Made by a program: the position numbers and the translations under genes. The notes below the pieces were generated by a model that was given only the letters and a program-made list of their open reading frames with translations, made no database searches and was not told the origin of the DNA. This document shows, in pieces, positions 5,769-30,242 of a stretch of 32,000 nucleotides of DNA. The stretch comes from Candidatus Iainarchaeum sp. (GTDB taxonomy: Archaea > Iainarchaeota > Iainarchaeia > Iainarchaeales > JAZDEL01), in assembly GCA_043808785.1 (NCBI GenBank), contig JAZDEL010000005.1, positions 1-32,000 on the forward strand. Reading direction: 5' to 3'. Each line of letters begins with the position of its first letter. Position 1 is the first letter of the stretch.

Positions 5769-6904
5769 AGGTCGCACAGGTCTGCCCTTTCTTCCATCCC
5801 GTGATAGGCGGCTGGGAGACCGCGGTGCTGAACATATCCAAGGGGCTGATAGAGCGCGGGCACGAGGTTACCGTCTTTACATGCGATGAAATGCACGACA
5901 AAACCAAAATACGCGAGCGCGAGGGTTTCGCGGAGGGCGTAAGGGTAAAGCGCTTTCCCGTATGGTTCAGGGTAAGCGACTTTTACAGGATATGGCCGGG
6001 CTTCATAGGCGAACTGCAAAAGGGCAAATTCGACATAGTGCACGCGCACAACTACAGGCACTTCCACTGCGACGCAAGCGCCTTCCTGAAAGGGCGCGGC
6101 AAATACAAGCTTGTGCTCAGGACAGGCATGCCTTTCCACCCGAAGAGCGCGCAGCTCGGCATGATGCGCGGAATTTACGATGCAACAATGCCGAAGCTGC
6201 TGCGCGGGAGAATAGACGGGCTGTTTGTCTACAACAATTCGGAAAAGGAAAAGTTTGAAAGGCTCGGCTTCAGCGGGGAACAAATATCCACAATACCTTA
6301 CGGCGTAGAGGATTTGTTCTTTGAGGAGGGCAACGGCGCAAAGTTCAGGAGGAGGCACTCGCTTAGGAGCAAGGTCGTGCTCTGCGCAGCAAGGCTGCAC
6401 CGCTACAAGGGAATTGAAACGCTGATAAAGGCTGCGGCATTTCTCGGCAGGGATGATGTGAGCATGGTCATAGCGGGGGACGGGGATGAAAAATATGCGC
6501 AAAGCCTCCTGCGCCTCTGCAGGAACATGGGCGTCGAAGACAGGGTTACTTTCGTCAGGGAGAGCATTTCAAGGGAGCAGCTGAGGAACGCCTATGCTGC
6601 GTGCGACCTGTTCGTGCTGCCGAGCATCTATGAATCATACGGCATTGCCCTGCTTGAGGCAATGGCGCAGGGCTGCGCGGTGCTTGCATCACGCACGGAA
6701 GGGCCTGCGGGAATAATAAGCGAAGGCGAGAACGGAATGCTCTTCGAGCCGGGCGGAAGCGCGGAACTTGCGCAAAAAATAGGAAGCCTTATAGACGACG
6801 GCACTGCCAGGGCAAGGCTCGGCAGAAACGCCAAGGCTTACGCGCAGAACCTGCGCTGGGAAAAAATCGTATGCATGATAGACGCGGAGTACGGTAAATT
6901 ATGA
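5765..6904 (+). CDS. GT4-family glycosyltransferase
   Basis: MKVAQVCPFFHPVIGGWE N-terminus. E-x7-E region PSIYESYGIALLEAMAQGCAVLASRTEGPAGIISEGENGMLF. ATGA overlaps at both ends. Confidence 0.9.
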   Translation: MKVAQVCPFFHPVIGGWETAVLNISKGLIERGHEVTVFTCDEMHDKTKIREREGFAEGVRVKRFPVWFRVSDFYRIWPGFIGELQKGKFDIVHAHNYRHFHCDASAFLKGRGKYKLVLRTGMPFHPKSAQLGMMRGIYDATMPKLLRGRIDGLFVYNNSEKEKFERLGFSGEQISTIPYGVEDLFFEEGNGAKFRRRHSLRSKVVLCAARLHRYKGIETLIKAAAFLGRDDVSMVIAGDGDEKYAQSLLRLCRNMGVEDRVTFVRESISREQLRNAYAACDLFVLPSIYESYGIALLEAMAQGCAVLASRTEGPAGIISEGENGMLFEPGGSAELAQKIGSLIDDGTARARLGRNAKAYAQNLRWEKIVCMIDAEYGKL

Positions 6905-8727
6905 AAATCTGCATTGTCTGCGGAGGCTTTCCCCCTGACAAGTACGGCGGGGTAGAGAACAGCCTTGCCGCATTCAGGGAAGCGATGGAGAAAAGGGGGC
7001 ACGAGATAACCGTTATTGCGCAGGATTTCAGGGGGAAGAAAGGGCAAGGCAAAAACATGCACTGGTTCGATGTCGAGCCGCGGAACCCTTTTCCGCAGAT
7101 AGGCATGGTGGGCTTTTTTACCGATGCCCTGCAGTTTGCGAGATGGTATTTCGAGGTTTGGAAATTCCTGCGCAGGCGCGAATTCGACATCTACCACGGC
7201 CACCAGATATGGGGCTTTGTAGGCTGCCTTGCAAAAAAAGGGAAATGGGTTCTGACGCCGAGGAATGTTATCGTGCCGAGCGCAAGCTGGCTGAAAAGCC
7301 TTTCGCACAAGGCGCACTACTTCATCCTCAGGCGTGCGCTGGACAAGGCAGACAGGGTTGTAGCAATAAGCGGGGTTCTCGAGGAAAACATCGCACAGCA
7401 CTCCCAAGCAAACAGGGCGAAGATAAGGAGAATATACAACGGCATAGACCTGCGCAAATTCAGGCGGCTGAAATTAAGGCGGGAAAGGGACGGCAAAAAG
7501 AGGCTCCTCTTTGCAGGCAAGCTGAAGCCCGAGAAGGGCGTGCTTGACGTGCTGCGCGCATACAGGCTGCTGAGGGAAAGGGGAATAGATGCGGAGCTTG
7601 TTGTTGCAGGCACCGGGGCGCATCTAGAAAGGCTGAAGAAGGAATATCCGGAAGTGAGCTTCCTCGGCTTTGTGGGGCAGGAGCGGCTTATAGAGGAATA
7701 CAACAAGGCCGATGCATATGTAGTTTATGCCCCAAAAACAACCGCTGATGAAAGCTTCTGCAACAGCCTTGCCGAGGCAATGGCATGCGAGTGCGCGGTT
7801 GTCTGTTCCGACATACCGATTTACAGGGAAATAACGAAGGGAAAGGCGTTCTTTGCGGAATCCGAAAGCCCGGAAAGGCTGGCAGATGCCATCGAGGGCG
7901 CTATAAAGCGCAAAGACCTTGCGGAAATCGGCAAAGAAATGAGGAAGGTCGCGGAAAACTACTCGCTCGAGAGGTGCGTAGAGGCGCACGAGGCAATGTA
8001 CCGCGAACTGCTTGCCGAGGGCAGGCTGAAGCCGGAAGATTATGGCGAGAACTATTTCCTGAACGAAACCCGCGGCTCCGCCGAGTTCAGGGAAAGCCGC
8101 GGGGAAATGCTCGGGGAGAAGCATGGCAGGGTTCTCTCGCTCCTCGAACCGAAGAGCGGCGAGCGCATCCTCGACATAGGCTGCGGCAGGGGCGAACTTG
8201 CATACCACGCAGCAAAGAGCGGGGCAACGTGCTTCGGGCTTGATTTTTCCCCCGCAGCGCTCCGCCTTGCGCAAGAAAAAAACAGGGGGCGGCTTGTGCA
8301 GGGGGCTTGCACCGAACTTCCCTTCCGCAAAGGCGCGTTCGATGCCGCTGTGCTGGGTGATATTATAGAGCACATAGACAGGGAGGATGCGGTGCGCTGC
8401 ATTGCCGCGGCGCACTTAGCACTGAAGAAGGGCGGCAGGCTCCTTATCCACACAAACAATGTGCGCACCGTGAAGGCTGCGGAAATTCTGGGGATAATTC
8501 AGGGCACAAGGTTCAGGAGGAACGACCCGAAGAAGACAAGGCATATAAACTTCCTTGGCAGGCTTGAGCTTGAGCGCATGCTTTCCGATGCCGGCTTCCG
8601 CTCAATGGCGTGGACCGAAAAAATCGGCAGGAAAAGGTTCAATTTTCCCGCGAGAGATGCCATGCTGGATGCCGCATGCAGGCTCGGCTTCGGCGCGGAC
8701 CTCTTCGCCCTGGGGGTCAAAAAATGA
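6901..8727 (+). CDS. bifunctional fusion: N-terminal GT4 glycosyltransferase plus C-terminal class I SAM methyltransferase
   Basis: 608-aa ORF. Residues about 1-370 are GT4-like (MKICIVCGGFPPDKYGGVEN..., ESFCNSLAEAMACECAVVCSD). Residues about 400-608 carry ILDIGCGRGELAYHAAKSG...GLDFS and FDAAVLGDIIEHI. The domain junction lies near nt 8030. Confidence 0.9.
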   Translation: MKICIVCGGFPPDKYGGVENSLAAFREAMEKRGHEITVIAQDFRGKKGQGKNMHWFDVEPRNPFPQIGMVGFFTDALQFARWYFEVWKFLRRREFDIYHGHQIWGFVGCLAKKGKWVLTPRNVIVPSASWLKSLSHKAHYFILRRALDKADRVVAISGVLEENIAQHSQANRAKIRRIYNGIDLRKFRRLKLRRERDGKKRLLFAGKLKPEKGVLDVLRAYRLLRERGIDAELVVAGTGAHLERLKKEYPEVSFLGFVGQERLIEEYNKADAYVVYAPKTTADESFCNSLAEAMACECAVVCSDIPIYREITKGKAFFAESESPERLADAIEGAIKRKDLAEIGKEMRKVAENYSLERCVEAHEAMYRELLAEGRLKPEDYGENYFLNETRGSAEFRESRGEMLGEKHGRVLSLLEPKSGERILDIGCGRGELAYHAAKSGATCFGLDFSPAALRLAQEKNRGRLVQGACTELPFRKGAFDAAVLGDIIEHIDREDAVRCIAAAHLALKKGGRLLIHTNNVRTVKAAEILGIIQGTRFRRNDPKKTRHINFLGRLELERMLSDAGFRSMAWTEKIGRKRFNFPARDAMLDAACRLGFGADLFALGVKK

Positions 8728-9869
8728 AAATAGCGTATGTTGTTTCTGGCTATGCCCCGCAATTGGGCGGCGCGGAACTTTACACACAGGGGGTTGCGGA
8801 GAGGCTTGCGAAACGCGGGCATGATGTTAGCGTAATAACTTCCCGCCCTGCGGGATACGCGCATTTTGAGGAGATTAACGGCATAAAGGTTTACAGGCTC
8901 CGCGGAACAAGGCTTCTGTTCGGGAAGATGGCGCTTTACCCCGAACTTAGGGCAACCATCGGAAAAATAATGCCTGATGCCTTGCACTGCATCGGGCACG
9001 GGCATCTGTATTCAATCGGCGCCGCAGGCGCGGCATCCAAACTCGGCATCCCGCTTTTCATGCATACATACGGCCCGCTTTCGGCGCACACGCAGCGCGG
9101 AATTCTTGAAAAGGCGCTCTGCGGAATTTACGACTGCATTGTGACCCCGCGGCTTTTCCGGAATGCGAAGGCAGTGCTTTACAGGACGCCGGGCAGCGGG
9201 GAATGGTGCATTTCAAAGGGCGCGAAGAAGGCACTGCTCGGCACAACCGGAATTGACGAGACATTCTTTGCAAAAACAAAAAATAAAAACCGCGGGCGTA
9301 GTTCAAAGGTTGTCGGGTTTGTGGGCACGATATGCAGGAGAAAGGGGGTGCAGAGCCTTGTAGATGCGGCACCGGAGGTAATAAAGAGGCACATGGGCGC
9401 GGAGTTCGTTATTGTAGGCTCGGGCAATGCGGAGACGGACAAAAATTTCGAGGCGGAATTGAGGGAAAGGGTGCGGGAACATGGCATAAGCGGGGCGTTC
9501 AAATTTATGGAGCCCATAATGCCTGACAGCCCTGAAAACAAAAAGAAAATCGCAAGGCTGTTTGATTCATTCGACGTTTTTGTGCTTCCCTCCGAATTCG
9601 AGGCGCCAGCGCAGGCAATGCTGCAGGCAATGGCGCGCGGCAAGCCTGTTGTGGTTGCCGGCATACCTATGCTGAGGGGGATTGTCGGGGACGAGAATGC
9701 GCTTTTCATAAATCCGGGGGACAGCGGCATGCTTGCCGAAAAGATAAGCGCGCTTCTTGCGGACAGCGCGCTGAGGAAACGCATGGGTGAAGCGAACATA
9801 AAGGCTGCAGGAAAGTTCTCGCTGGAACGCATAGCAGCTGAACTTGAGAAGGTTTACGGGGGATTTTGA
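8724..9869 (+). CDS. GT4-family glycosyltransferase
   Basis: Trimmed to ATG 8724 (MKIAYVVSGYAPQLGGAELY), which forms an ATGA overlap with the upstream stop. It has the motif PSEFEAPAQAMLQAMARGKPVVVAG...ENALF. Confidence 0.9.
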   Translation: MKIAYVVSGYAPQLGGAELYTQGVAERLAKRGHDVSVITSRPAGYAHFEEINGIKVYRLRGTRLLFGKMALYPELRATIGKIMPDALHCIGHGHLYSIGAAGAASKLGIPLFMHTYGPLSAHTQRGILEKALCGIYDCIVTPRLFRNAKAVLYRTPGSGEWCISKGAKKALLGTTGIDETFFAKTKNKNRGRSSKVVGFVGTICRRKGVQSLVDAAPEVIKRHMGAEFVIVGSGNAETDKNFEAELRERVREHGISGAFKFMEPIMPDSPENKKKIARLFDSFDVFVLPSEFEAPAQAMLQAMARGKPVVVAGIPMLRGIVGDENALFINPGDSGMLAEKISALLADSALRKRMGEANIKAAGKFSLERIAAELEKVYGGF

Positions 9870-10471
9870 TGGAAGGCATAAACCCTTTCAGGTACCTGCA
9901 GAACGCGCTTTCCAAAATTACGCGCAAAAGGCGCATTGATTTTTTTTTGTCAAGCATGGAACGCCAAGGGAACGCCACTGTCCTTGATGTCGGGGCAAGC
10001 GCCAACTTCCGGCTTAAATGCGGCGGACAGGGCAGGCTAATCGCCCTTAACACAAGCAGGCATGCGCTTTCAGGGCTGTGCGAAACGCCGGCGCTCTGTG
10101 TTGTCGGGGACGGATGCGCCCTGCCGTTCAAAGACAAATCTGTCGACATGGCATTCTCGAATGCGGTTATTGAGCATGCAGGCAGCTGGGAAAGGCAAAG
10201 GCTTTTTGCGGATGAGATAAGAAGGGTGGGAAAAGGGTATATTGTGTGCACTCCGAACAGGCACTTCCCCTACGAGCCGCATTTCCATCTTCCGCTTTTT
10301 CAGTTCATGCCCGCTGCCGTGCAGCGCTTCCTTAAGGGGCTTATGGGAAAGGGGCACCTTGAAGTGCGCCTGCTAAGCAGGGGGGAAATGAAGGGGCTTT
10401 TTCCCGATGCCGAGGTTTTCGGCATGACGTTCGACGCGCTACCTGAAGTGCTCATCGCGCACAGGAAATGA
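9869..10471 (+). CDS. class I methyltransferase-like protein (Methyltransf_11-like, degenerate glycine loop)
   Basis: ATG 9869 shares one nt with the upstream TGA (TGATG). It has VLDVGAS in place of the canonical GxGxG, and GDGCALPFKDKSVDMAFSNAVIEH. Confidence 0.7.
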   Translation: MEGINPFRYLQNALSKITRKRRIDFFLSSMERQGNATVLDVGASANFRLKCGGQGRLIALNTSRHALSGLCETPALCVVGDGCALPFKDKSVDMAFSNAVIEHAGSWERQRLFADEIRRVGKGYIVCTPNRHFPYEPHFHLPLFQFMPAAVQRFLKGLMGKGHLEVRLLSRGEMKGLFPDAEVFGMTFDALPEVLIAHRK

Positions 10472-13605: not shown

Positions 13606-13667
13606 AGTCAGGTTAGGGGCAAAACAACTAATAAATATTGCTGTCACAGATATATCTGCGTGTTGCG
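13606..13667. promoter_or_regulatory. 62-bp divergent promoter spacer with a shared AT-rich box
   Basis: AATAAATATT (13630-13639) lies 25-34 nt from the minus-strand ATG (13605) and 29-38 nt from the plus-strand ATG (13668). A second box, GATATATC, lies at 13648-13655. This spacing fits archaeal TATA boxes driving leaderless or short-leader mRNAs. Confidence 0.4.
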
Positions 13668-14630
13668 ATGGAAGATGCGATATTGGTTACTGGCGGCGCG
13701 GGCTTCATAGGAAGCACCGCAATAGCGGCGCTTTTGGGCGAGGGGGCGCGCATAGTTTGCGTGGACAATTTCAGCGACGACTACGACCCCGCGCTTAAGA
13801 GGAAAAATATAAAGCCCTTCCTCGGCAACGAAAATTTCACGCTTATCGAGGCGGATATCCGCGACAAAAAAATCATGGAAAAGGCTTTCAGGAAGGGCAA
13901 ATTCGCCAAGGTTCTGCACCTTGCGGCAAGGGCTGGCGTAAGGCAGAGCATTGCGCAGCCCGAACTATACGAGGACATCAATGTCCGCGGAACCCTGAAC
14001 ATGCTTGATGCAGCAAAGGCGCACGGAGTGAAGGATTTTGTATTTGCATCATCCTCGAGCATTTACGGCGCGACGAAAAACATCCCGTTCAAAGAAGGGG
14101 ATGGCGGCATTGCGGTTTCCCCTTATGCCGTAACCAAGAGGGCGGGCGAACTTTACTGCAGTTACTACAGCAGGGCATACGATATGAACTGCGCCTGCCT
14201 GCGCTATTTCACAGTTTACGGGCCGGGGCAGAGGCCCGCGCTTGCGATACACAAGTTCACAAGGCTTATAAGCGAGGGCATGGAAGTGCCGATTTACGGC
14301 GACGGCAGCAGCGCGCGCGATTATACTTATGTAAGCGACATAGTGCGCGGCACCCTTGCCGCGCTTGAATTTTCTGGAAAAAACCGCGGCTTCCAGATAA
14401 TAAACCTCGGCAACTCGCGCCCCGTGAACATTATGGAGCTTGTGGGGCTTATAGAGAAGGAGTTAGGAAAAAAGGCGAATGTAAGGCACGTGCAGGAGCA
14501 GGCAGGGGATGTGAAGGTTACGCATGCGGACATATCAAAGGCAGGGCGCCTGCTCGGCTACGAGCCGAAAATGAAAATCGAGGAAGGGATAGGCAAATTT
14601 GTCGAGTGGTACAATTCCGGGGGAAAGTGA
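13668..14630 (+). CDS. NAD-dependent epimerase/dehydratase (extended SDR), UDP-glucuronate 4-epimerase-like
   Basis: It has the Rossmann motif VTGGAGFIGS, DNFSDDYDPALKRKN, SSSSIYG, the catalytic YAVTK (YxxxK) and RYFTVYGPGQRP. All are typical of the CapI / UDP-GlcA 4-epimerase group. Confidence 0.85.
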   Translation: MEDAILVTGGAGFIGSTAIAALLGEGARIVCVDNFSDDYDPALKRKNIKPFLGNENFTLIEADIRDKKIMEKAFRKGKFAKVLHLAARAGVRQSIAQPELYEDINVRGTLNMLDAAKAHGVKDFVFASSSSIYGATKNIPFKEGDGGIAVSPYAVTKRAGELYCSYYSRAYDMNCACLRYFTVYGPGQRPALAIHKFTRLISEGMEVPIYGDGSSARDYTYVSDIVRGTLAALEFSGKNRGFQIINLGNSRPVNIMELVGLIEKELGKKANVRHVQEQAGDVKVTHADISKAGRLLGYEPKMKIEEGIGKFVEWYNSGGK

Positions 14631-15406
14631 TGGGCGGCAAAAGCATGGCTACGGGAAAAGGCAGGGTTGATTGGCTCGGAAAGCACTTCGAATTCAATGC
14701 CAAAAAGTACGCATACTCCTACAGCAATTGGGAGCCGCGCAGGGCCAGGATGCTTGAAATAATGCCGCAGGAAGGCATATCGCGGGCGCTTGAAGCAGGC
14801 TGCGGGAGCAACCCCCTTATAGAGGCGCTTCCTGCAGGCGTTGAAAAATTCGGCTTGGATATTGCCCGCCAGCGGCCGAAGGGCGTGAAGTTCAGGCGGC
14901 ACAATGTCGAGGACGGCATCCCTTTCGCGGACGGCTATTTCGATTTGGTTGTTGCGGGGGAAATTATAGAGCATGTTTACGAGACGGGAAGATTCCTGCG
15001 GGAATGCAACCGCGTTCTGCGCAAGGGCGGCACGCTCCTTGTCTCAACCCCTAACACGGGCTCGCTGCGCAACATAAAGGATGCAATTCTCGGAAGGCAG
15101 CCGAGGTATATGGATTACGATGCCGTGCTGCGCCCACGCGACAGCGGGCACATAAGGCACTACTCGCGCAGCGCGCTTTTCTCGCAACTGTGGGAATGCG
15201 GCTTTTCTGCCGAGCGCCTGACAAGCGACTTTGTATATTTCCCCCTGCATTTCCACATAAAACCAATAGGCTGGCTTGGAGAGAAGCTTGCGGCGCTGGT
15301 TCCGCGCTACGGGGATTCGCTTATCGTGAGGGCGAGAAAGATTTCGGATCATAACTATTGCGCTCCAGGAAAGTTTTGCGGCTTTTTGGCCCAAGGGGTT
15401 TTTTGA
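14630..15406 (+). CDS. class I SAM-dependent methyltransferase (paralogue A1)
   Basis: ATG 14630 shares one nt with the upstream TGA. It has LEAGCGSNP and FDLVVAGEIIEHVYETGRFLRECNRVLRKGGTLLVSTPN. It is a clear paralogue of 19100-19819. It carries a 21-aa Cys-containing tail (ISDHNYCAPGKFCGFLAQGVF) that the paralogue lacks. Confidence 0.85.
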   Translation: MGGKSMATGKGRVDWLGKHFEFNAKKYAYSYSNWEPRRARMLEIMPQEGISRALEAGCGSNPLIEALPAGVEKFGLDIARQRPKGVKFRRHNVEDGIPFADGYFDLVVAGEIIEHVYETGRFLRECNRVLRKGGTLLVSTPNTGSLRNIKDAILGRQPRYMDYDAVLRPRDSGHIRHYSRSALFSQLWECGFSAERLTSDFVYFPLHFHIKPIGWLGEKLAALVPRYGDSLIVRARKISDHNYCAPGKFCGFLAQGVF

Positions 15407-16287
15407 TGGCCGATAAATTAAAAAACATAAAAGAAAAAATCAGGAAAGAACTGGCGAAAAATCCTGCTTATCTGGACGGCTGTGATGTGCCGGCATTAAA
15501 AGCGGTATTGTTCGAAACCGGCTCCGCCTGCAACAGGAAATGCGCCTGGTGCCCCAATTACACTACTGACAGAGGGAACCATTTTTTGGGCGATAAAGTT
15601 TTTTATAAAGTAATGGCCGAGCTTAAGGAAATGAAATTTGAAGGGAGGGTTTCATTCAGCATGTACAATGAACCCCTGCTTGACAAAAGGCTCCCGAAAT
15701 TTATTGAACACGTGAGAAAAAACATCCCTTCGGCATATATATACCTGAACACCAACGGGGACGCACTGACCTCGGATGTCTGGAAAAGCCTTCGGGGGAA
15801 GGGGCTGGACTATGCCAACGTCTCCCAATATGACGGAAAAATAAATGAAAACATTGAAAAAATCCTGAATGGATTGGATTCGGGTGAAAGAAAGCATCTC
15901 GGCGCACATATTTTTGATTTGAACACCATTAACAACAGGGCGGGATTGATTAAATCAAGGGCGCTTGAGAAGCCTTTGCAGGAGAAGTGTTCCCGGCCTT
16001 CTTACCAATTGTGCATTAATTACAAAGGCGAAGTTGTTGTTTGCTGCAATGATTACCACGGTTCGGTTACGGTAGGCGACGCGGGCAAAGAATCAATAAA
16101 AGATTTGTGGAGTAATTATGTGTTTAAGTTCTACAGGAAGAAGTTATCGGAAGGGGACAGGGCGAGTTTGGAATTATGCAATTTGTGCGATTTGTGCTCA
16201 AGCCCTGTGCCTCCAATTTATCCTAAGCCCTCATTTGCCGCGCGGGCGCGGCGGGCGCTGCGGCAAATTATAAACAATTATAAATAA
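15406..16287 (+). CDS. radical SAM enzyme with Cys-rich twitch/SPASM-like C-terminus
   Basis: ATG 15406 shares one nt with the upstream TGA. It has CxxxCxxC (SACNRKCAWC), then KGEVVVCCND (GX4C) and CNLCDLC. GC is markedly low (22/60 in each of the samples 15421-15480 and 15601-15660). Confidence 0.9.
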   Translation: MADKLKNIKEKIRKELAKNPAYLDGCDVPALKAVLFETGSACNRKCAWCPNYTTDRGNHFLGDKVFYKVMAELKEMKFEGRVSFSMYNEPLLDKRLPKFIEHVRKNIPSAYIYLNTNGDALTSDVWKSLRGKGLDYANVSQYDGKINENIEKILNGLDSGERKHLGAHIFDLNTINNRAGLIKSRALEKPLQEKCSRPSYQLCINYKGEVVVCCNDYHGSVTVGDAGKESIKDLWSNYVFKFYRKKLSEGDRASLELCNLCDLCSSPVPPIYPKPSFAARARRALRQIINNYK

Positions 16288-16370
16288 TTGCAGCCAATTT
16301 TATTATTGCATTTAAAGCGCGGTTAAAGAAAGTTTTTGAGGAAGCTGTCGGATGATTGCGGGGTAATCGG

Positions 16371-18155
16371 ATGATTATACTTGGGTTCACGAACGGCCAC
16401 GACTGCGGAGCCTCGATTGTGAGGGACGGGAGGGTTGTTGCGGCCGTAAACGAGGAAAGGCTTAACCGCGTGAAGGTGTATTGGGGCTTCCCGTGGCTCT
16501 CAATCAGGGAGGTTATGCGCGTTGCGGGGGTTAAACCTGGGGAGATTGACGCTGCCGCATATGGCGGCCTTGCCGACGCCTGCAACATCTGGCAAGTCAA
16601 GAACCAGTCGGAGGGCCTGCAGTACCCCTCGCTGTTCGGGATGAACTGCGGAGCCGTGAATTTAATCGAAAAAAGGGCATACAGGCCGCTGCTGAGGAGG
16701 GGCATAATCAAACGTGGGAGCGCCGATGTCGCGCTCAAATATTTCCGGAAGGCGTTGCGCAGGATTGGGATTGCCGCTCCGCTTGCAATGGTCGAGCACC
16801 ATGCCGCGCATGCTGCCTCGGCATATTACAGCTCGGGGCGCGAGAATGCCACGACAATTACAATTGACGGAATCGGCGACTTGCAGTGCGCAACTGTATC
16901 AAAATGCAAAGGCACGGAAATCGAGAGGATTGCATCAACGCATTACCATGGGGCATCACCTGGTGCCTTCTATGCGAATGTTACAAATCTCCTCGGCTTC
17001 AGGCCCCTGAGGCATGAGGGCAAAGTGACAGGGCTTGCCGCCTACGGGAATCCGGAGGCAATTGAGTTCCCGTTTTTGGGCCTCGCAAACGGAGGAATGG
17101 AATTCAAGTGGGAGAATTACGAGGGCTATTTCCCGAGGCCGTTTGACAGCCTGTCGAATTTCCTTCTGTACATCAGGGGCGGCCTCGGCATTGGCGCAAC
17201 AAGCAGGGCATATCTTGATGCAATGAGGGAAAGGGCCAAAGGGGCCAAGAGGGAGGATGTTGCGGCCGCCGCACAAAAGAAATTCGAGGAGGTTATTTGC
17301 AGGCATGTGGAGAAGGTTCTCGAGGCAACCGGAAACGGGAACCTCTGCCTTGCGGGAGGGGTGTTTGCGAATGTGAAGCTCAATCAGCGCATCCATGAAA
17401 TCGACGGCGTTAGCAGCATTATGGTGCACCAGCATATGGGTGACGGCGGGCTGGCTGTCGGGGCGGCGCTGCACTATTACAGGGAGAAGCAAGGGGGAAA
17501 ATGCGTAAAGCTGCCGCATGCTTACCTGGGCCCCGAGTATGGCGGGGGAGAGATAGAGCGCGAGCTTACGGCAGCGGGGCTTGAGTATGAGGAGCACGGG
17601 GATATTGACGGAAAGGTTGGGGAGGTGCTGGCCGAGGGCGACATAGTCGCGAGGTATGGCGGCAGGATGGAGTACGGGCCCCGTGCGCTCGGAAACAGGA
17701 GCATTTTGTGCCAGCCCACCGACCCCTCCGTAAACGATTGGCTGAATAAAAAGCTGAAACGCACGGAGTTCATGCCTTTTGCGCCAGTAACGCTTGGCCG
17801 TTATGCGAAGAAGTGCTACAAAGGCATGAAGGGGGCGGAGCAGCCTGCCGAGAACATGATTATTACCTTTGGCTGCACCGACTGGCTTGCTGAGAACTGC
17901 CCTGCTGTCGTGCATGTTGACGGAACGGCACGCCCCCAGGTCATCGAGAGGGGCGTGAACCCCGGGTATTACAGGGTGCTGGAGCAATACCACAAGATTA
18001 CGGGCCTGACTACGCTCATTAATACCTCATTCAACATCCACGAAGAGCCCATAGTATGCACGCCGGGGGATGCCGTGAGGGCGTTTAAGCTCGGGCATCT
18101 GGAGTACCTGGCTATCGGGGATTTTTTGGTTCGGAACAAAAGCGATAAAAACTGA
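16371..18155 (+). CDS. NodU/CmcH-family carbamoyltransferase
   Basis: The N-terminus is MIILGFTNGHDCGASIVRDGRVVAAVNEERLNRVK. The C-terminal domain has VHVDGTARPQ and NTSFNIHEEPIVCTPGDA. Both are hallmarks of the family. Confidence 0.9.
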   Translation: MIILGFTNGHDCGASIVRDGRVVAAVNEERLNRVKVYWGFPWLSIREVMRVAGVKPGEIDAAAYGGLADACNIWQVKNQSEGLQYPSLFGMNCGAVNLIEKRAYRPLLRRGIIKRGSADVALKYFRKALRRIGIAAPLAMVEHHAAHAASAYYSSGRENATTITIDGIGDLQCATVSKCKGTEIERIASTHYHGASPGAFYANVTNLLGFRPLRHEGKVTGLAAYGNPEAIEFPFLGLANGGMEFKWENYEGYFPRPFDSLSNFLLYIRGGLGIGATSRAYLDAMRERAKGAKREDVAAAAQKKFEEVICRHVEKVLEATGNGNLCLAGGVFANVKLNQRIHEIDGVSSIMVHQHMGDGGLAVGAALHYYREKQGGKCVKLPHAYLGPEYGGGEIERELTAAGLEYEEHGDIDGKVGEVLAEGDIVARYGGRMEYGPRALGNRSILCQPTDPSVNDWLNKKLKRTEFMPFAPVTLGRYAKKCYKGMKGAEQPAENMIITFGCTDWLAENCPAVVHVDGTARPQVIERGVNPGYYRVLEQYHKITGLTTLINTSFNIHEEPIVCTPGDAVRAFKLGHLEYLAIGDFLVRNKSDKN

Positions 18156-18186
18156 TGCATGGCTTTTTTGCACAGGGGGCACAGGA

Positions 18187-18963
18187 ATGGCCGGTGAAAG
18201 CAATGAAATGCTGACTGTGGATTACAACGGAATTACTGTCTACTACAAAAAGCATCTTGACGGAGGTGGCAGTACGTTCGGGCAGGATTACATTCCCGAG
18301 GTCGGGAAGCGCTTCGGGAAGGTGGGGAGGGTGCATGAATTCTGCTGCGGGCCTGCATTCATTGGATTTTCATTGCTTGCGCACGGGCTGTGCGATTCAT
18401 TGTGCCTTTCGGACATAAACCCGAAGGCGATAGAGATGTGCAGGCTCACTGTAAAAGAAAACCGCCTGGAAGGGGTTGTTGATTGCTACGTTTCCGACTG
18501 CTTAAAGGGAATCCCGGAAACAGAGAAGTGGGATTTGGTTGTAAGCAACCCTCCGCACTTCGACGGCACTGAAGAGGATTATGCGCGTGAAATCCGCAGC
18601 TATGACCCGAAATGGAGGATACACAAGGAATTCTATGAAAATATCGGCGGCTTCCTAAACGAGGGAGCATCAGTTTATTTCTATGAAAACGGCCGGCAGT
18701 CAAACCCGGAAATATTCAAGGAAATGGCTGGGAAAGCGGGGCTTGAATTTGCCGGAATCCGCAGGCCGGGCAAGCTGGAGGTGATCCCCAGATGTCTTGC
18801 ATGGAGGCTGCCCCGAGTGCTGCACAAATTCCCGAACATCAGAAAAATGGCCGGCATTGTCATTAGAAGTGCGAACTACCCTTTCTATTTTATCCACAGC
18901 AGGAAACCTGCTGCCGGGAGCGCAAGCAACCCTTCCCATTTTGCCCGCGGCAGGAAGTATTGA
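18187..18963 (+). CDS. class I methyltransferase of the (D/N)PP(Y/F/H) amino-methyltransferase type (MTS-like)
   Basis: 258-aa ORF with motif I region VHEFCCGPAFIGF, LSDINP, and motif IV DLVVSNPPHF. Confidence 0.75.
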   Translation: MAGESNEMLTVDYNGITVYYKKHLDGGGSTFGQDYIPEVGKRFGKVGRVHEFCCGPAFIGFSLLAHGLCDSLCLSDINPKAIEMCRLTVKENRLEGVVDCYVSDCLKGIPETEKWDLVVSNPPHFDGTEEDYAREIRSYDPKWRIHKEFYENIGGFLNEGASVYFYENGRQSNPEIFKEMAGKAGLEFAGIRRPGKLEVIPRCLAWRLPRVLHKFPNIRKMAGIVIRSANYPFYFIHSRKPAAGSASNPSHFARGRKY

Positions 18964-19004
18964 TGCTTAGCATGTGCCGCACCGGGCATGAATGCGCGCA
19001 TATC

Positions 19005-19049
19005 CCGCGCTACGGTGATTCGCTTATCGTGAGGGCAAGGAAGGTTTAG
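19005..19049 (+). pseudogene. orphan 3'-terminal fragment of the A-type methyltransferase gene (PRYGDSLIVRARKV-stop)
   Basis: It is 43/45 identical, by eye alignment, to 19775-19819, the real 3' end of the gene that starts 51 nt downstream. The match includes the TAG. It is also related to 15302-15346. There is no upstream coding continuity. Confidence 0.6.
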
Positions 19050-19099
19050 CCCCGCGGCAACCCTTAAAAACAGGTCTGGGCAAATTCTATCGGTCGGAC

Positions 19100-19819
19100 A
19101 TGGGCAAAAAAAACTGCGAAAGCCAAAAGCCGTACTGGCTGGATGCGCACTTTGCATTCAACAGAGAGGGGCATACAAGAATCCCCCCTTACTCAAAATC
19201 CGGCATGCACGACGTGCTTCTCTACAGTAGGCTTATAGACCTGCTGCCACAAGACGGTATTTCAAAGGCGTTCGAGATAGGCTACGGGAATAACCCTATT
19301 ATAAGCTTCCTGCCAAGTGGCGTAGAAAAGTTTGGAATAGATATGGCTGACATAAAGCCAGATGGCATTAATGTCATAAGGCACAATGTAGAGGACGGCC
19401 TGCCGTTCCAGAAAGGCTGCTTCGAGCTTGTGGTTGCCTGCGAAACCATAGAACACATATATGAAACAGGCAACTTCCTGCGGGAATGCAACCGCGTGCT
19501 GCGAAAGGGCGGCACGCTGGTTTTGTCTACGCCCAACATTGCTTCGCTGCGCAATATAGCAAGATGCATACGTGGCAGGCAGCTGAAATTCATGGGATAT
19601 GATGTGAGAAGCGCAGATGGGCACATAAGGTGCTACACCCGCGGCTCGCTCTTCAGGCAGCTCGATGAATGCGGGTTTTCAGTAGAAAAGTTCACAAGCA
19701 CCAAAATGTACCTGCCTTTGCACTTCCATATAAAGCCCATAGGCTGGCTTGGCACTAAACTCGCGCCCCTTCTTCCGCGCTACGGGGATTCGCTTATCGT
19801 GAGGGCGAGGAAGGTTTAG
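19100..19819 (+). CDS. class I SAM-dependent methyltransferase (paralogue A2)
   Basis: 239-aa ORF. It has FELVVACETIEHIYETGNFLRECNRVLRKGGTLVLSTPN and LHFHIKPIGWLG...PRYGDSLIVRARKV, near-identical in blocks to 14630-15406. Confidence 0.85.
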   Translation: MGKKNCESQKPYWLDAHFAFNREGHTRIPPYSKSGMHDVLLYSRLIDLLPQDGISKAFEIGYGNNPIISFLPSGVEKFGIDMADIKPDGINVIRHNVEDGLPFQKGCFELVVACETIEHIYETGNFLRECNRVLRKGGTLVLSTPNIASLRNIARCIRGRQLKFMGYDVRSADGHIRCYTRGSLFRQLDECGFSVEKFTSTKMYLPLHFHIKPIGWLGTKLAPLLPRYGDSLIVRARKV

Positions 19820-19834
19820 TGCCGCTTTGGCGCC

Positions 19835-20860
19835 TTACTTCAGGGCACCGCAGCAATAAACCGTTCTGCACGGCCCGCCTATTTTTCCGAACTCCCGCCT
19901 TTCAAGCATGCCTATCAGCCGTTTCCTCTTCTCTGATGAATATATCCGATCAATTGACCGCTCCCAAATATTGCCGAGAGCAAGCTCGTTGTTCGAATCG
20001 AGACAGCAGGCATACCATGTTCCATCCGGAGCTATGAATGCAACCGAATGCATCTTCTCGAGGCGCGGACACGAGTAACCGCACAGGTCCGCGCTAAGGT
20101 GTGCCGCCGCATCCCTCTCAGCCCACCCGAAGACAGCACTCCTAAGAACCATATCGCGCGGGGCAAGCAGCCTGTTCAGGGGAAGCGCAAAAACCCGTGC
20201 CTTTTCTGCAGTTTGCCTGCTTATGCCCAAACGCTTCGCAAGGAGAAGGCAGTGCATCTTCATTTTTATTTCTGCAAAATCGTCGGGCACCTCAGCAAGG
20301 CGTGCGTCGCGCATCTTTGCAGGGTAAAACCCGAAAGCGCCGTGAATTGAATGTATGTAATCGTGCAAAGTCACCACATGTATGCGCAGCGGCACCGCAC
20401 TTTTCAGTTCGCGCCTCAGCCCGAGAAAAGCCTCGAGGTTGCGCATCGTGTTTTCAAGCGGAATGCGCTTTACATTGAAGTAGTTTTCCGCATTTGCGCC
20501 GTCAATGTTGCAGTGCACCTTGTCTATAAGCCCTTCCTCAAGGATTGTGCGCGACTTTTCTTCGGTCAGGTTCTGGAAATTCGTGAAAACGCCTGTTTCA
20601 ATCCACGGGCATTCCGCCTTTATGTGCCTCGCTATTTCGATGAAGCGCGGGTTCAGAAAGGCGTCGCCGTTCTCGCCGAGCTGCATATGCGTCACGCTGT
20701 GCCGAGCGCGGAATTCCGGGGAGGAAAGCTCGGAGGTTATTTTTTTCGCAAGGCCGAGGGGCATAATCTTTTCCTTTATCTTCGCGCCCCGGTCCCTTGC
20801 GCAAAAAATGCAGTCTGCTCCGCATGCTAAGGAAAGCGAAAGGTTTACCGCAGTGAGCAT
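19835..20860 (-). CDS. radical SAM enzyme with twitch/SPASM-like C-terminus
   Basis: It has CxxxCxxC (LACGADCIFC) close to the N-terminus. The C-terminal part has DGTWYACCLD (GX4C) and GGPCRTVYCCG. The track ORF starts at a TTG (20869). ATG at 20860 is preferred. It is convergent with 19100-19819 with only a 15-nt gap. Confidence 0.85.
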   Translation of the reverse strand: MLTAVNLSLSLACGADCIFCARDRGAKIKEKIMPLGLAKKITSELSSPEFRARHSVTHMQLGENGDAFLNPRFIEIARHIKAECPWIETGVFTNFQNLTEEKSRTILEEGLIDKVHCNIDGANAENYFNVKRIPLENTMRNLEAFLGLRRELKSAVPLRIHVVTLHDYIHSIHGAFGFYPAKMRDARLAEVPDDFAEIKMKMHCLLLAKRLGISRQTAEKARVFALPLNRLLAPRDMVLRSAVFGWAERDAAAHLSADLCGYSCPRLEKMHSVAFIAPDGTWYACCLDSNNELALGNIWERSIDRIYSSEKRKRLIGMLERREFGKIGGPCRTVYCCGALK

Positions 20861-20992
20861 GTTTACCAATTCAAATTTGGGGCGGATGTGTTAAAAAACA
20901 AGCGCTAGGGTTAGTGCGAAAGTTTGTGCACGCCGCACCCCCTGCAATTTGCGCGAAAATAACGCCCGCGTGCGCGCCTGTTCCCGCGCGTT

Positions 20993-21014
20993 CATGCCTG
21001 TCCATGCCCGTCCA
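20993..21014. promoter_or_regulatory. tandem 10-bp repeat upstream of a TATA-like box
   Basis: CATGCCTGTC and CATGCCCGTC, followed by CA, sit immediately upstream of TCTATATAAA (21021-21030). The spacer lies between the radical SAM gene (-) and the secreted-protein gene (+). Confidence 0.3.
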
Positions 21015-21100
21015 GATGCATCTATATAAACCGTTCATCCGCAATAGGTATAATTCCATTCAAATCAAATAAACAAAAGGAAAAACGAGGTGATTTTTGG

Positions 21101-22228
21101 ATGAAGATGAAATATGGAGCGGGCATTGCCCTGCTGCTTGCCGCAGCGGTGCTGCTTGGCACTTACGCGTTTGCGGAGGAGGCACTGCCTAACCATGAGG
21201 ATGCCAATGCAACCGCGCATGAGCAGGACGGCGGCGCTTCGATAGGTGCGGATACTGTAGCCGATAATACGGGGGAAATTGCCGAGGATACCGCAGCGGA
21301 TAATGGTACGGGCGATGCAGCAGCGAAAGCAATGAGGGAAAGGGCCCGCATTGCGGCAGAGGAAGCAAAGCAGGCAAGGGAAAAGGCAGGCAAAGGCAAA
21401 GAGGCTAAGGGAACCGATGCTGAAACCGTTTCAGCGGAACCCGCGGATTATGAAACAGTGCTTGCGCAGATAGGCGAGGGGCTTAACACAGAGGACGCGA
21501 AAAACCTCGGGGAAATAATGAGCGAACTTGCACACAGGCAGGCGCAGGAAAGGCAGGACGCGAACCTTACTGGAAGGGAAAGGGCCGAGTTCAACAAACA
21601 GCTCAACGCATACCTGAAAAACCTCAGGGCGGATATCAGGGTTGCTGTGAAGGACAAGAACCTTTCCGCGGTTGTTGCAAGGGAAATTGCAAGGAGGGCG
21701 GAGGTAGCAAGGGTAAAATCTGCGGCGGAACTGAGGCCAGAGGTTCTTCTCGAGGAGATTTCGGCAGTCTTCGGCACCGCGGACGAGGCTCAGCTCAAGG
21801 AGATAAAGGACATTGTAAGGCAGCGCATAAGGAACAACATCCATTTCTGGAACAGGCTGCTCTACAGGCTGAAGAATGACGCGAAATTCAGGCAGCACTT
21901 CAGGGACATGGTGCATAAGTGGTACCAAAAGCAGTACCTGAATCAGCACCCCGAAATTGTTCGGCCCGAAGCCGCGACGGAAAACGTTGCCGCAAGGGCA
22001 ATAAACCACGATTTCGTGAGGCAGCACCTGCTTGAAAAAATAAGGCAGCGCCTCAGGGACAGGGCGCACAATGCGAAGCAGGCAAGCATTATTCCAGAAC
22101 TGGTGCAGGACATGGTGGACGAGAACGCCATAATCAATCCTGCGCTTGTGCAGGTGGATTCGGCAGCGGTTGCCGCCGAAGTGAACCCTGAAGCGGAAAT
22201 AAACCCCGCGGTTGCACAGCCGCGGTAA
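21101..22228 (+). CDS. secreted or N-terminally anchored hypothetical protein, acidic low-complexity then highly charged helical
   Basis: GAGGTGA lies 7 nt upstream of the ATG. It has a signal-like N-terminus (MKMKYGAGIALLLAAAVLLGTYAFA). An A/D/E/T-rich segment carries NAT and NGT sequons. A long K/R/E-rich region follows, and the C-terminus has NPxx repeats. Confidence 0.7.
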   Translation: MKMKYGAGIALLLAAAVLLGTYAFAEEALPNHEDANATAHEQDGGASIGADTVADNTGEIAEDTAADNGTGDAAAKAMRERARIAAEEAKQAREKAGKGKEAKGTDAETVSAEPADYETVLAQIGEGLNTEDAKNLGEIMSELAHRQAQERQDANLTGRERAEFNKQLNAYLKNLRADIRVAVKDKNLSAVVAREIARRAEVARVKSAAELRPEVLLEEISAVFGTADEAQLKEIKDIVRQRIRNNIHFWNRLLYRLKNDAKFRQHFRDMVHKWYQKQYLNQHPEIVRPEAATENVAARAINHDFVRQHLLEKIRQRLRDRAHNAKQASIIPELVQDMVDENAIINPALVQVDSAAVAAEVNPEAEINPAVAQPR

Positions 22229-22268: not shown

Positions 22269-22362
22269 TTGCGGCCTTCCTTTCCCCCGCACTTAGCCCT
22301 TAGTAACCCTTAAAAAAACAAATGCGTGAATACTATACATTAGTGCGTGCAGGGTTGTTGAC

Positions 22363-23001
22363 ATGAACCGCAAATTCGGGGCATTGCTTTTTGCTTTTTC
22401 CGCACTGCTTATCCTCGGCTATGCTTCCGCGCTTTTGGGGAATTACTCGGTTGTTGTTGAGGAGAACGGCAACGCAGCGGTTGTGCTTTCTGTCGAGGGC
22501 TCGGGAACCGTTGATGTGCCTTTGCCGCTCGATACCGAGAATTATGCAATCGATGGGGCGCTTTACGTGCCCTCCGCAAACGGAGTCGAACTTTCCATAG
22601 ATGAGGGAACGCCGGCAACGCTTATATACGACAGCGCACTGCTTACCTCCAAAAGTGCTGAAGGCTGGGCATTTGAACTTGATTTGGGAGCCTTTGATTC
22701 CGGAAGCGTAACCCTCTTCCTGCCAAAGGACACGAGGGTAGCGTCAATGCAGCCAATGGGCTCTGTTTCCGACAGCGATGACGCGAAGATTATAGCGTAC
22801 ACGATAATGAAGGGCACTGCAAGCGTCGGGGCGAACTACTCTTTTGTTTCCGCGGGCGGCGGCACCGAAGGGGGGGAAAGCGGCAAGGAAGGGCGGAGTG
22901 CGGACGGCGCGCTTATAATGGGCGCCGCAATAGCGATAGTTGTTGTGCTTGTTGTTGCGGTCATTGTGTTCATCTACCTGTCCTCTAAAAAAAAAGTTTA
23001 A
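22363..23001 (+). CDS. cell-surface protein with N-terminal signal/anchor and C-terminal transmembrane anchor
   Basis: The N-terminus is hydrophobic (FGALLFAFSALLILGYASA). The central domain is beta-rich and carries NYS sequons. A G/E/S-rich linker precedes a C-terminal TM helix plus basic tail (ALIMGAAIAIVVVLVVAVIVFIYLSSKKKV). Confidence 0.7.
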   Translation: MNRKFGALLFAFSALLILGYASALLGNYSVVVEENGNAAVVLSVEGSGTVDVPLPLDTENYAIDGALYVPSANGVELSIDEGTPATLIYDSALLTSKSAEGWAFELDLGAFDSGSVTLFLPKDTRVASMQPMGSVSDSDDAKIIAYTIMKGTASVGANYSFVSAGGGTEGGESGKEGRSADGALIMGAAIAIVVVLVVAVIVFIYLSSKKKV

Positions 23002-29133: not shown

Positions 29134-30204
29134 ATGAAGTGCACAGGAATAAAGGTTCCGAAAAAGGATGCCCAGCATATGCATAACTATCTCTCCGCAC
29201 AGGGCCTCCTGCAGAGGGGTTGCGCGCCGGTGCGCATGAGTAAGCATGTGATTTTCCCGCTTGTGAGTAAGCCAAACACGGCACAGCGGAGGGAATTGGG
29301 AAAAATGCTCCGCGGCATGAAAAAGTTCGCGCTTGCAAAACATGAATTCGCTTCCCGAAATGAAAAGCCCCGCTCCCTGAAGGAGGCGCTGCAGGGCAGG
29401 CTGAAAAAGGCGGAACTTGGGGCATTAAGCCGCGCGTTCGACGCCCTGGGAAATATCGCAGTAATCGAAGTCCCGAAAGGGCTTGTGAAAAAAGAAACGC
29501 AAGTCGCGCAGGCGCTCATGCTTGTGAACCCGCAGGTAAAGACTGTGCTGAAAAAAACAACCGCGCGCAGGGGCGAGTTCAGGGTTCAGGGCCTGAAGGT
29601 TATCGGCGGCGAAAAAAACTTTCGCGCGAATTATGCGGAACACGGGTGTAAATTCGTTGTGGATTTGGATAAGGTTTTCTTTACGCCCCGCCTCGGCACG
29701 GAGAGGGGAAGGATAGCGAAACTGATCAAACCCGGCGAAACGGTCTCGGTTCTTTTCGCGGGCGCCGGGCCGTATGCAATCGTTTTCGCGAAGCATGCGA
29801 AACCCGAGAAGGTTTTCGCTGTCGAACTTAACCCGCACGCTGTGGAGAACATGAAGGATAACATCAGGCTGAACCATGTGCAGAACCTTGTTGTGCCTAT
29901 TGAGGGGGATGTGAGGAAAATCGCGCCTGTGCTCCTTCGCTGCACCTCGGACCGCGTAGTTATGCCGCTCCCGAAAAACGCCGGGGATTTTCTAGGGGAG
30001 GCGCTGGAATGCCTGAAGAAGAAGGGGGGCGTTGTGCATTTCTACCACTTCGGGGAAGCGAAAGAGCCGTTTGCCGAGGCTGTTGCGCTCGTGAAAAAGG
30101 CGTGCAGGGGCGCAGGGAGAAAGTGCAGGATACTGCGCAAGGCGAAATGCCGCTCTTATTCGCCCGATACCGTGCAGGCTGTTGTGGATTTTAAGGCGGA
30201 ATGA
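29134..30204 (+). CDS. trm5: Trm5 / Met-10+ family tRNA (guanine37-N1)-methyltransferase
   Basis: 356 aa. It has FDALGNIAVIE, FRANYAEHGCKFVVDLDKVFFTPRLGTER, the SAM motif VLFAGAGPYAIVFAK, VFAVELNPHAV and VVMPLPKNAGDFL...GGVVHFYHF. This is the Trm5/Taw2 (PF02475-type) architecture. Confidence 0.85.
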   Translation: MKCTGIKVPKKDAQHMHNYLSAQGLLQRGCAPVRMSKHVIFPLVSKPNTAQRRELGKMLRGMKKFALAKHEFASRNEKPRSLKEALQGRLKKAELGALSRAFDALGNIAVIEVPKGLVKKETQVAQALMLVNPQVKTVLKKTTARRGEFRVQGLKVIGGEKNFRANYAEHGCKFVVDLDKVFFTPRLGTERGRIAKLIKPGETVSVLFAGAGPYAIVFAKHAKPEKVFAVELNPHAVENMKDNIRLNHVQNLVVPIEGDVRKIAPVLLRCTSDRVVMPLPKNAGDFLGEALECLKKKGGVVHFYHFGEAKEPFAEAVALVKKACRGAGRKCRILRKAKCRSYSPDTVQAVVDFKAE

Positions 30205-30242
30205 ACCTGCCACGAACCGCGGTGCAGGCTGTTGTGGATTTT
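30172..30242 (+). repeat. 21-nt perfect direct repeat: trm5 3' coding end echoed downstream
   Basis: GTGCAGGCTGTTGTGGATTTT occurs at 30172-30192, inside the last codons of trm5, and again at 30222-30242 in the spacer, 50 nt apart. Confidence 0.8.

Follow-up and report, generated by a model that had tools for sequence, protein, structure and literature searches.

Orphaned 3′ gene ends that arise by sequential displacement have been described for the effector-immunity modules of the Vibrio cholerae type VI secretion system (T6SS), and homology-facilitated illegitimate recombination is proposed as their source (PMC5361080 and references 41, 42 and 44-47 therein). The 'C-terminal displacement' work on Rhs, which is cited there, concerns another system with orphaned 3′ ends. 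A comparable orphan is present in the archaeal locus described here. Within a 32 kb stretch (termed the window) of a 38.5 kb metagenomic contig of Candidatus Iainarchaeum sp., the 3′ end of a class I S-adenosylmethionine (SAM) methyltransferase gene, termed A type, is found in three direct copies, T1, T2 and T3. T1 and T3 belong to the genes A1 and A2, and T2 stands alone. The copies are probably scars of a homology-anchored insertion that was followed by repeat-mediated deletion and conversion at the A-gene end.

The locus resembles the Rhs and T6SS loci in three respects: a conserved gene provides the homology at which incoming DNA is, or here would be, anchored; the 3′ end of the resident gene survives downstream as a same-orientation fragment; and arrays vary between close relatives. 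There are also differences. The displaced piece is here about 70 nt of a methyltransferase gene from an archaeal glycan cluster, and there is one orphan and no array. The 3′ ends form the variable part in the bacterial systems, whereas in the archaeal genes conservation is found at the 3′ end. There is no toxin/immunity logic, and the mechanism proposed for the archaeal locus is drawn from four loci.

Bacterial O-antigen and capsule loci are recombination mosaics in which deletion, duplication and conversion occur between direct repeats of paralogues. The archaeal locus shares with them a mosaic pattern of identity, repeat copies that are more alike within than between genomes, and direct repeats (45 nt) that flank a 0.77 kb unit, which is missing in a relative that carries the repeat-to-repeat junction. 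The repeat is, however, of unusually small length and coincides with a gene end, and the host is an uncultured archaeon, probably DPANN-like; locus dynamics of this kind are poorly documented for such archaea. There is also a likeness to integrons and integrase-driven islands, as direct repeats of a 3′ end bracket variable segments and a gene is restored on one side with an orphan on the other. The locus differs from these systems in that the window has no integrase and no attC-type imperfect palindrome, the A2 unit has its own promoter-like leader and the repeat is ordinary coding sequence.

Three direct copies of a methyltransferase gene end

The repeated sequence is a 45 nt gene end that codes for PRYGDSLIVRARK(V/I). 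All three copies are on the + strand and in direct orientation. The features concerned are:

14630-15406, + strand: A1, A-type class I SAM methyltransferase gene (Pfam Methyltransf_23/11), adjoining an epimerase gene
15302-15346, + strand: T1, end of A1 with the stop codon lost; codes for PRYGDSLIVRARKIS
18975-19004, + strand: A-family-like stretch upstream of T2, diverged and with a 3 nt deletion (right-anchored alignment to five A genes versus shuffles)
19005-19049, + strand: T2, the orphan copy; codes for PRYGDSLIVRARKV followed by a stop
19100-19819, + strand: A2, the second A-type methyltransferase gene (Pfam Methyltransf_23/11)
19775-19819, + strand: T3, end of A2, ending in TAG

The starts of the copies are 3703 nt (T1 to T2) and 770 nt (T2 to T3) apart. 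T1 and T3 agree at 42 of 45 positions; they show no difference over the first 35 nt, and with 2 nt upstream included the uninterrupted match reaches 37 nt. T2 and T3 agree at 43 of 45 positions, TAG included, with a longest exact match of 20 nt, and T1 and T2 at 40 of 45. Only these three sequences match T3 with three or fewer mismatches in the window, and 100 shuffles gave no match. Chance alone would be expected to give no such match. A first-pass annotation, made from the sequence letters, had reported three same-orientation copies at these coordinates, and all of its sequence statements hold. It had also described A1 as having lost its stop codon and reading through into a TGATG junction. 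This is correct: A1 has TCG where T2 and T3 have TAG, and 20 extra codons lead to a TGA that overlaps the ATG of a radical SAM/SPASM gene at 15406.

A1 and A2 display 59% protein identity and 64.5% DNA identity. Where the two share a residue, they also share the codon at 64 of 126 positions outside the tail and at 12 of 13 within it, an excess with P ~0.002 if the tail is fixed beforehand (binomial from codon counts). The surplus nucleotide identity between T1 and T3 is suggestive as a conversion signal, but is not decisive alone. T encodes the most conserved strand of the A-type protein, and it is therefore the longest near-identical stretch among the paralogues. The encoded end is conserved at the protein level in distant homologues and represents bona fide coding sequence. 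A search of genome, metagenome and viral contig collections with the degenerate pattern GDSLIV(R/K)ARK gave six loci, all of them unrelated methyltransferases without similarity to the window. T as a widespread repeat, an outcome for which the first-pass annotation had asked that the 45-mer be checked, is rejected on this basis and on that of the window itself.

The orphan extends beyond T2. In alignments of the sequence upstream of T2 with A genes, 2 of 500 shuffles reach the window score at 21 nt and 21 of 500 at 30 nt; upstream of the corresponding orphan of a related contig, L001, none of 500 does so at either length. As paralogue-level similarity continues for 21-30 nt on the 5′ side of T2, the orphan is an A-gene relic of about 70 nt and no free-standing 45-mer.

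The locus in related genomes

The A family is rare. When 5.8 billion sequences were searched at the protein level, no more than six close members came to light: A1 and A2, two on L001, one on L002 and one on L009. An exact-protein look-up for A1, A2, the NPPH methyltransferase and the + strand radical SAM protein found no strain variants on record. L001 is a 22.8 kb Logan contig that is syntenic with the window at 74-84% DNA identity; L009 and L002 are short, 2.9 kb and 1 kb. Pfam scans of 30 open reading frames (ORFs) provided the gene identities in the window, and those proposed earlier (A-type methyltransferases, a radical SAM gene of low G + C content, a carbamoyltransferase and an NPPH methyltransferase) are confirmed. 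The genes and regions involved in the comparison, other than those above, are:

13638-14630, + strand: NAD-dependent epimerase gene (Pfam)
15406-16287, + strand: radical SAM/SPASM gene of low G + C content (Pfam Radical_SAM+SPASM)
16371-18155, + strand: carbamoyltransferase gene, NodU/CmcH type (Pfam); a mosaic of 90-95% and 65-76% identity to L001
18187-18963, + strand: MTS-type methyltransferase gene with NPPH motif (Pfam); 90% DNA identity to the L001 orthologue
19050-19099, + strand: promoter-like stretch and 5′ leader of A2, TTAAAAACAGGTCTGGGCAAATTCTATCGG; homologous to the leader of the L001 gene A3, with a putative promoter role
19835-20869, − strand: convergent radical SAM/SPASM gene (Pfam); directly 3′ of the window's T3 and of the L001 orphan
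20943-21100, + strand: conserved region upstream of the gene for a 375-amino-acid protein; found 50-60 nt after an A-gene end in L009 (~57 nt) and L001 (51 nt)
21101-22228, + strand: gene for the 375-amino-acid low-complexity protein; no Pfam family

L001 retains the carbamoyltransferase gene, the NPPH methyltransferase gene, the 42 nt spacer and an orphan, T2′, at 7879-7923, which also codes for PRYGDSLIVRARKV and a stop. The left flank of this orphan is identical to that of T2 at 53 of 60 positions, a score reached by none of 300 shuffles. On its right side, the convergent radical SAM gene begins with its 3′ end after 51 nt, and there is neither a promoter-like leader nor A2. A2 and its leader form a 0.77 kb unit that is not present at this position in L001. 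L001 carries, without this unit, the junction of the left side of T2 with the right side of T3 (19049 joined to 19820), which the first-pass annotation had predicted.

A different change is seen at the A1 position. Of an A1 orthologue, L001 retains no more than the initial ~100 codons (47% identity to 14648-14863), and this fragment is fused to the equivalent of window position 16321. The difference amounts to a 1.46 kb deletion with one end within A1 and the other a short way upstream of the carbamoyltransferase gene. The deletion takes out the remainder of A1, T1 and the low-G + C radical SAM gene, and neither of its ends lies in T. At 4888-5199 of L001 there is a 103-codon ORF consisting of the N-terminal third of the A1 orthologue and a lysine/glycine-rich extension, a pseudogene that results from the deletion.

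These two differences bear unequally on what had been claimed at first pass. The repeats had been read as recombination scars at a conserved gene end, and the L001 junction, together with the absence of the block from L009, upholds this. The segments between the repeats had been called exchangeable cassettes. This applies to the 0.77 kb unit, which is present or absent at T, as L001 shows. A 3.7 kb cassette from T1 to T2 finds no support in the L001 deletion; the 3.7 kb segment is bounded by T in no relative, and 'exchangeable cassettes' therefore overstates the evidence.

L001 has two A genes, A3 and A4, beyond the radical SAM gene, and these represent a tandem duplication. The duplication junction is on a 10 nt microhomology, GCGA(G/C)GA(A/G)AG. 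This shares sequence with the final codons of T, and A3 has lost its stop codon because of this overlap. A copy of ~196 nt of the 5′ end of the − strand radical SAM gene and its upstream region parts A3 from A4 (8862-9057 and 9771-9966, 80% identical). Downstream of A4 comes the conserved region that precedes a homologue of the 375-amino-acid protein gene. An ORF-precise loss, in the window, of an A4-like gene upstream of the 375-amino-acid protein gene was considered and is unsupported by alignment.

L009, the simplest of the relatives, consists of the epimerase gene, a single A gene, the conserved upstream region and a homologue of the 375-amino-acid protein gene; the entire 5.5 kb block is missing. 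L002 displays the end of an epimerase gene, an A gene and a second epimerase gene. An epimerase gene likewise precedes A in L002 and L009, and in L001 it precedes the A fragment. The radical SAM/SPASM gene at 15406-16287 has a G + C content of 44%, compared with ~55% in its surroundings, and is without counterpart in L001 and L009; it is probably a separate and more recent acquisition. As gene content differs among the window, L001, L002 and L009, the stretch from the epimerase gene to the 375-amino-acid protein gene is hypervariable. A genes or A ends are found at most segment boundaries but not at all, the 1.46 kb deletion of L001 being the exception.

DNA identity between the window and L001, in sliding comparisons, is 90-95% at 16321-16900, 65-76% at 17000-17950, 89-97% at 18046-18600 and 80-88% at 18650-19049. 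It is 52-74% in the epimerase gene and 56-82% in the − strand radical SAM gene. At four-fold degenerate sites, identity is 81% in the NPPH methyltransferase gene and 43% in the epimerase gene, with neighbouring genes at 43-64%. From the alternating identity blocks and the range at four-fold sites it follows that the locus is a recombination mosaic. When window 16321-19049 is set against L001 5194-7923, the block limits are sharp, with 90-97% beside 65-76% inside the carbamoyltransferase gene. Such a pattern suggests recent exchange between lineages.

The orphan has diverged in a different manner from its flanks. T2 and T2′ differ at 8 of 45 nt, and every difference is synonymous or changes stop to stop (P = 1e-5, random-substitution simulation). 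At third codon positions, 7 of 15 differ. The last 54 codons of the NPPH methyltransferase gene differ at 8 of 54 third positions (Fisher P = 0.014 versus T), and the 42 nt spacer, at all sites, at 5 of 41 (Fisher P = 0.01 versus T). Divergence in T thus exceeds that of the flanks, and T therefore has an older, coding-type history inside a younger flank. This suggests that the T part of the orphan was overwritten by conversion from functional A-gene ends. A crossover between T2 and T3 would also produce the pattern, the L001 orphan then being the former end of a functional A2 orthologue. T copies within the window are alike at 40-43 of 45 positions, and agree with T2′ and the A4 tail of L001 at only 35-37 of 45. 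A programmed readthrough or frameshift that joins the NPPH methyltransferase to T2 was rejected, as the T frame is offset in the window and in frame in L001.

A probable homology-anchored insertion and its rivals

The 3′ ends T1, T2 and T3 stem from three paralogues of one A-type gene in a putative glycan-decoration cluster. It is proposed that DNA, either foreign or duplicated, entered at an A gene in an ancestor shared by the window and L001. The incoming DNA would have carried the carbamoyltransferase gene, the NPPH methyltransferase gene and perhaps the radical SAM gene. Homology to A may have anchored one end of the insert, with an illegitimate junction of the other end ~70 nt ahead of the stop, by Campbell-type or homology-facilitated illegitimate recombination. 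This would leave a complete A1 on the left, with the old 3′ end displaced downstream as the orphan T2. Afterwards, T would have acted as a patch for crossover and conversion, the A2 unit being lost or gained by unequal crossover. Genes for methyl-, carbamoyl- and radical-SAM-type decoration would be gained and lost between related genomes with no dedicated recombinase involved.

Displacement is consistent with a complete A1 at 14630-15406 and a relic of ~70 nt at 18975-19049 in the same orientation. Repeat-mediated deletion or conversion is consistent with the recombinant junction in L001, with copies that are more alike within than between genomes and with the flank-incongruent history of T. 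The other L001 rearrangements, the 1.46 kb deletion and the microhomology tandem duplication, are ordinary illegitimate events. The data speak for duplication, displacement and deletion, with homology and microhomology as the driving forces.

Several points weigh against this interpretation. The collections searched contain a single closely related locus, L001, besides L002 and L009, which are short and more distant, and these would fit more than one order of events; the A2 unit may have been lost from L001 by a T2 × T3 crossover or gained in the window. No genome displays a complete A1 directly before the right flank of T2, the state that would precede insertion of the 3.7 kb segment. L009 is not the immediate pre-insertion state, as it is also without the − strand radical SAM gene that follows the orphan and has only ~66% DNA identity. 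The L001 orphan has no near-identical partner, agreeing with the A4 tail at 33 of 45 positions and with the A3 tail at ~31 of 45 (hand count); its coding-like conservation therefore needs a donor since lost, either the A1 end or an A2 orthologue that was deleted. When the 60 nt just right of the L001 orphan are aligned globally with the right flank of T3, the result is not significant owing to indels, and the adjacency argument rests for this reason on the − strand radical SAM gene itself. A permutation test of the longest T1/T3 run across the whole gene gives a marginal P = 0.056, and an in-frame ATG is present 5′ of the orphan in both genomes (18963 in the window, 7840 in L001).

The last two points have rivals attached to them. 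If the orphan were the remnant of an internally deleted third paralogue, the similarity of the gene ends would reflect strong amino acid constraint and chance, and T would have no special role in recombination. This finds encouragement in the marginal T1/T3 excess after scan correction, in GDSLIVRARK-type ends of unrelated methyltransferases and in deletions at the same locus that do not involve T. But an untranslated relic should not remain identical to T3 at 43 of 45 positions, with only synonymous change across the split of the window and L001; moreover, the L001 junction is exactly in T, and the divergence of T is incongruent with that of its flank. We consider the explanation unlikely, although with some chance of being right. 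There is a slimmer chance that the orphan is expressed as a small ORF of 26-28 amino acids (18963-19049), ending in PRYGDSLIVRARKV, under purifying selection. The small ORF starts at or beside the stop codon of the NPPH methyltransferase gene. An in-frame ATG without intervening stops is found in both genomes, that of the window overlapping the upstream stop as TGATG, and all eight orphan differences keep the peptide and the stop, with P = 1e-5 under neutrality. On the other hand, the start and the N-terminal part are not conserved, with a 1 nt indel and a different ATG (MLSMCRTGHECAHI versus MACAGTGQECALI), and the two genomes do not place the T frame alike with respect to the upstream gene. 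The third-position divergence of T (7 of 15), greater than that of the flanks, fits replacement from diverged gene ends better, T2 is identical to T3 of the same genome at 43 of 45 positions, and a lone terminal beta-strand of a Rossmann-fold enzyme would have no obvious function. A further idea is that T is a purpose-built recombination or docking module of an archaeal glycan-diversification system, in which units led by a methyltransferase gene would be shuffled among fixed docks, with the orphan as a selected empty dock, or that the orphan encodes a functional micro-peptide. Either would explain the perfect frame of a gene-less fragment in genomes that differ by 10-35% nearby, but we regard this as very unlikely.

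The first-pass annotation had also considered att-like behaviour, of which the data give no indication. No integrase, transposase or recombinase domain was found in Pfam scans of the 30 window ORFs or among the precomputed Pfam matches of L001. A repeat search found no inverted repeat at T, and the fold energies of the three T regions are no different from those of shuffles (z = +0.39, −0.15 and −1.14), which gives no sign of a hairpin. An RNA element at T was likewise rejected, with no stable fold and no Rfam match at E ≤ 1 in 14000-21200. The integron features, an IntI tyrosine recombinase and an attC imperfect inverted repeat, are absent from the window. Direct repeats such as those of integrative elements are present, but the 3.7 kb and 0.77 kb segments code only for radical SAM proteins, a carbamoyltransferase and methyltransferases. 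Neither a transposase nor terminal inverted repeats of a transposon or insertion sequence were found, and a 45 nt duplication is far longer than usual target-site duplications.

It would still be conceivable that T is a dedicated att- or attC-like site and that the A2 and 3.7 kb units are mobilized by a recombinase encoded elsewhere in the genome, as part of the 38.5 kb contig lies outside the window. The sharp T boundaries, the exact T-to-T junction of L001 without the A2 unit, and the different positions of A-type genes in related genomes are compatible with such a site. Besides the missing recombinase domains, inverted repeat and fold, several points speak against it: T is genuine coding sequence, with a peptide that distant homologues retain, other rearrangements of the locus bypass T or use microhomology, and the 45-mer does not occur in the genome, metagenome and viral collections except in unrelated methyltransferases. 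A dedicated site is thus highly improbable. The window derives from a metagenomic contig, and a chimera might have been joined via the shared 45-mer. The longest exact matches are, however, 20 nt (T2/T3) and 37 nt (T1/T3), which is little compared with the long k-mers by which typical assemblers join sequences, and in L001, assembled independently, the orphan occupies the same place. An assembly artefact is scarcely credible. Homology-anchored insertion with later deletion and conversion is retained as the probable explanation.

Surrounding genes and significance

Upstream of the locus are six family-4 glycosyltransferase genes, further methyltransferase genes, a deacetylase gene and another radical SAM gene. 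At 6901-8727, a family-4 glycosyltransferase and a class I methyltransferase domain are encoded as a fusion by a single ORF of 608 amino acids. On the downstream side the window has genes of the Trm5/TYW2, DUF63 and diphthine-synthase-like types, and L001 carries DUF357; these genes suggest an archaeal origin. A perfect 21 nt direct repeat, GTGCAGGCTGTTGTGGATTTT, is present at 30172-30192 and 30222-30242, with a spacing of 50 nt, at and just past the 3′ end of the Trm5/TYW2-like gene. Some distant homologues carry the label Micrarchaeota.

The 375-amino-acid protein is of low complexity and rich in E, A, G and K, and a start resembling a signal peptide is seen in the L009 homologue. The first 300 nt of the gene are 44-48% identical to L001. 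The product may be a fast-evolving surface protein encoded beside the glycan cluster. An AT-rich box recurs in this part of the window. It is found at 19059-19090 upstream of A2 (CCCTTAAAAACA), at 20885-20905 between the − strand radical SAM gene and the 375-amino-acid protein gene (GTGTTAAAAAACAA), and at 22305-22336 upstream of the ORF at 22363 (CCCTTAAAAAAACA). In sequence it looks like a putative archaeal TATA-like promoter element.

With regard to mechanism, the locus points to ordinary homology-based recombination, and no new mobile-element system or mechanism is revealed. An earlier suggestion was that the repeats permit gain or loss of decoration genes and hence glycan variation. Gene content does differ among the relatives, in agreement with the first part; the altered content may affect the glycan. 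The 87 nt relic with an intact frame calls for caution in annotation, and the T copies can be used as a marker of strain-level variation in read data.

The locus provides a coordinate-level example of gain and loss of decoration genes (O/N-methyl, carbamoyl and radical-SAM types) in the surface-glycan cluster of a little-known archaeal lineage, with a short conserved gene end as the probable homology patch. Displacement-type orphan gene ends, known from bacterial toxin loci, would thus arise also in archaeal glycosylation loci.

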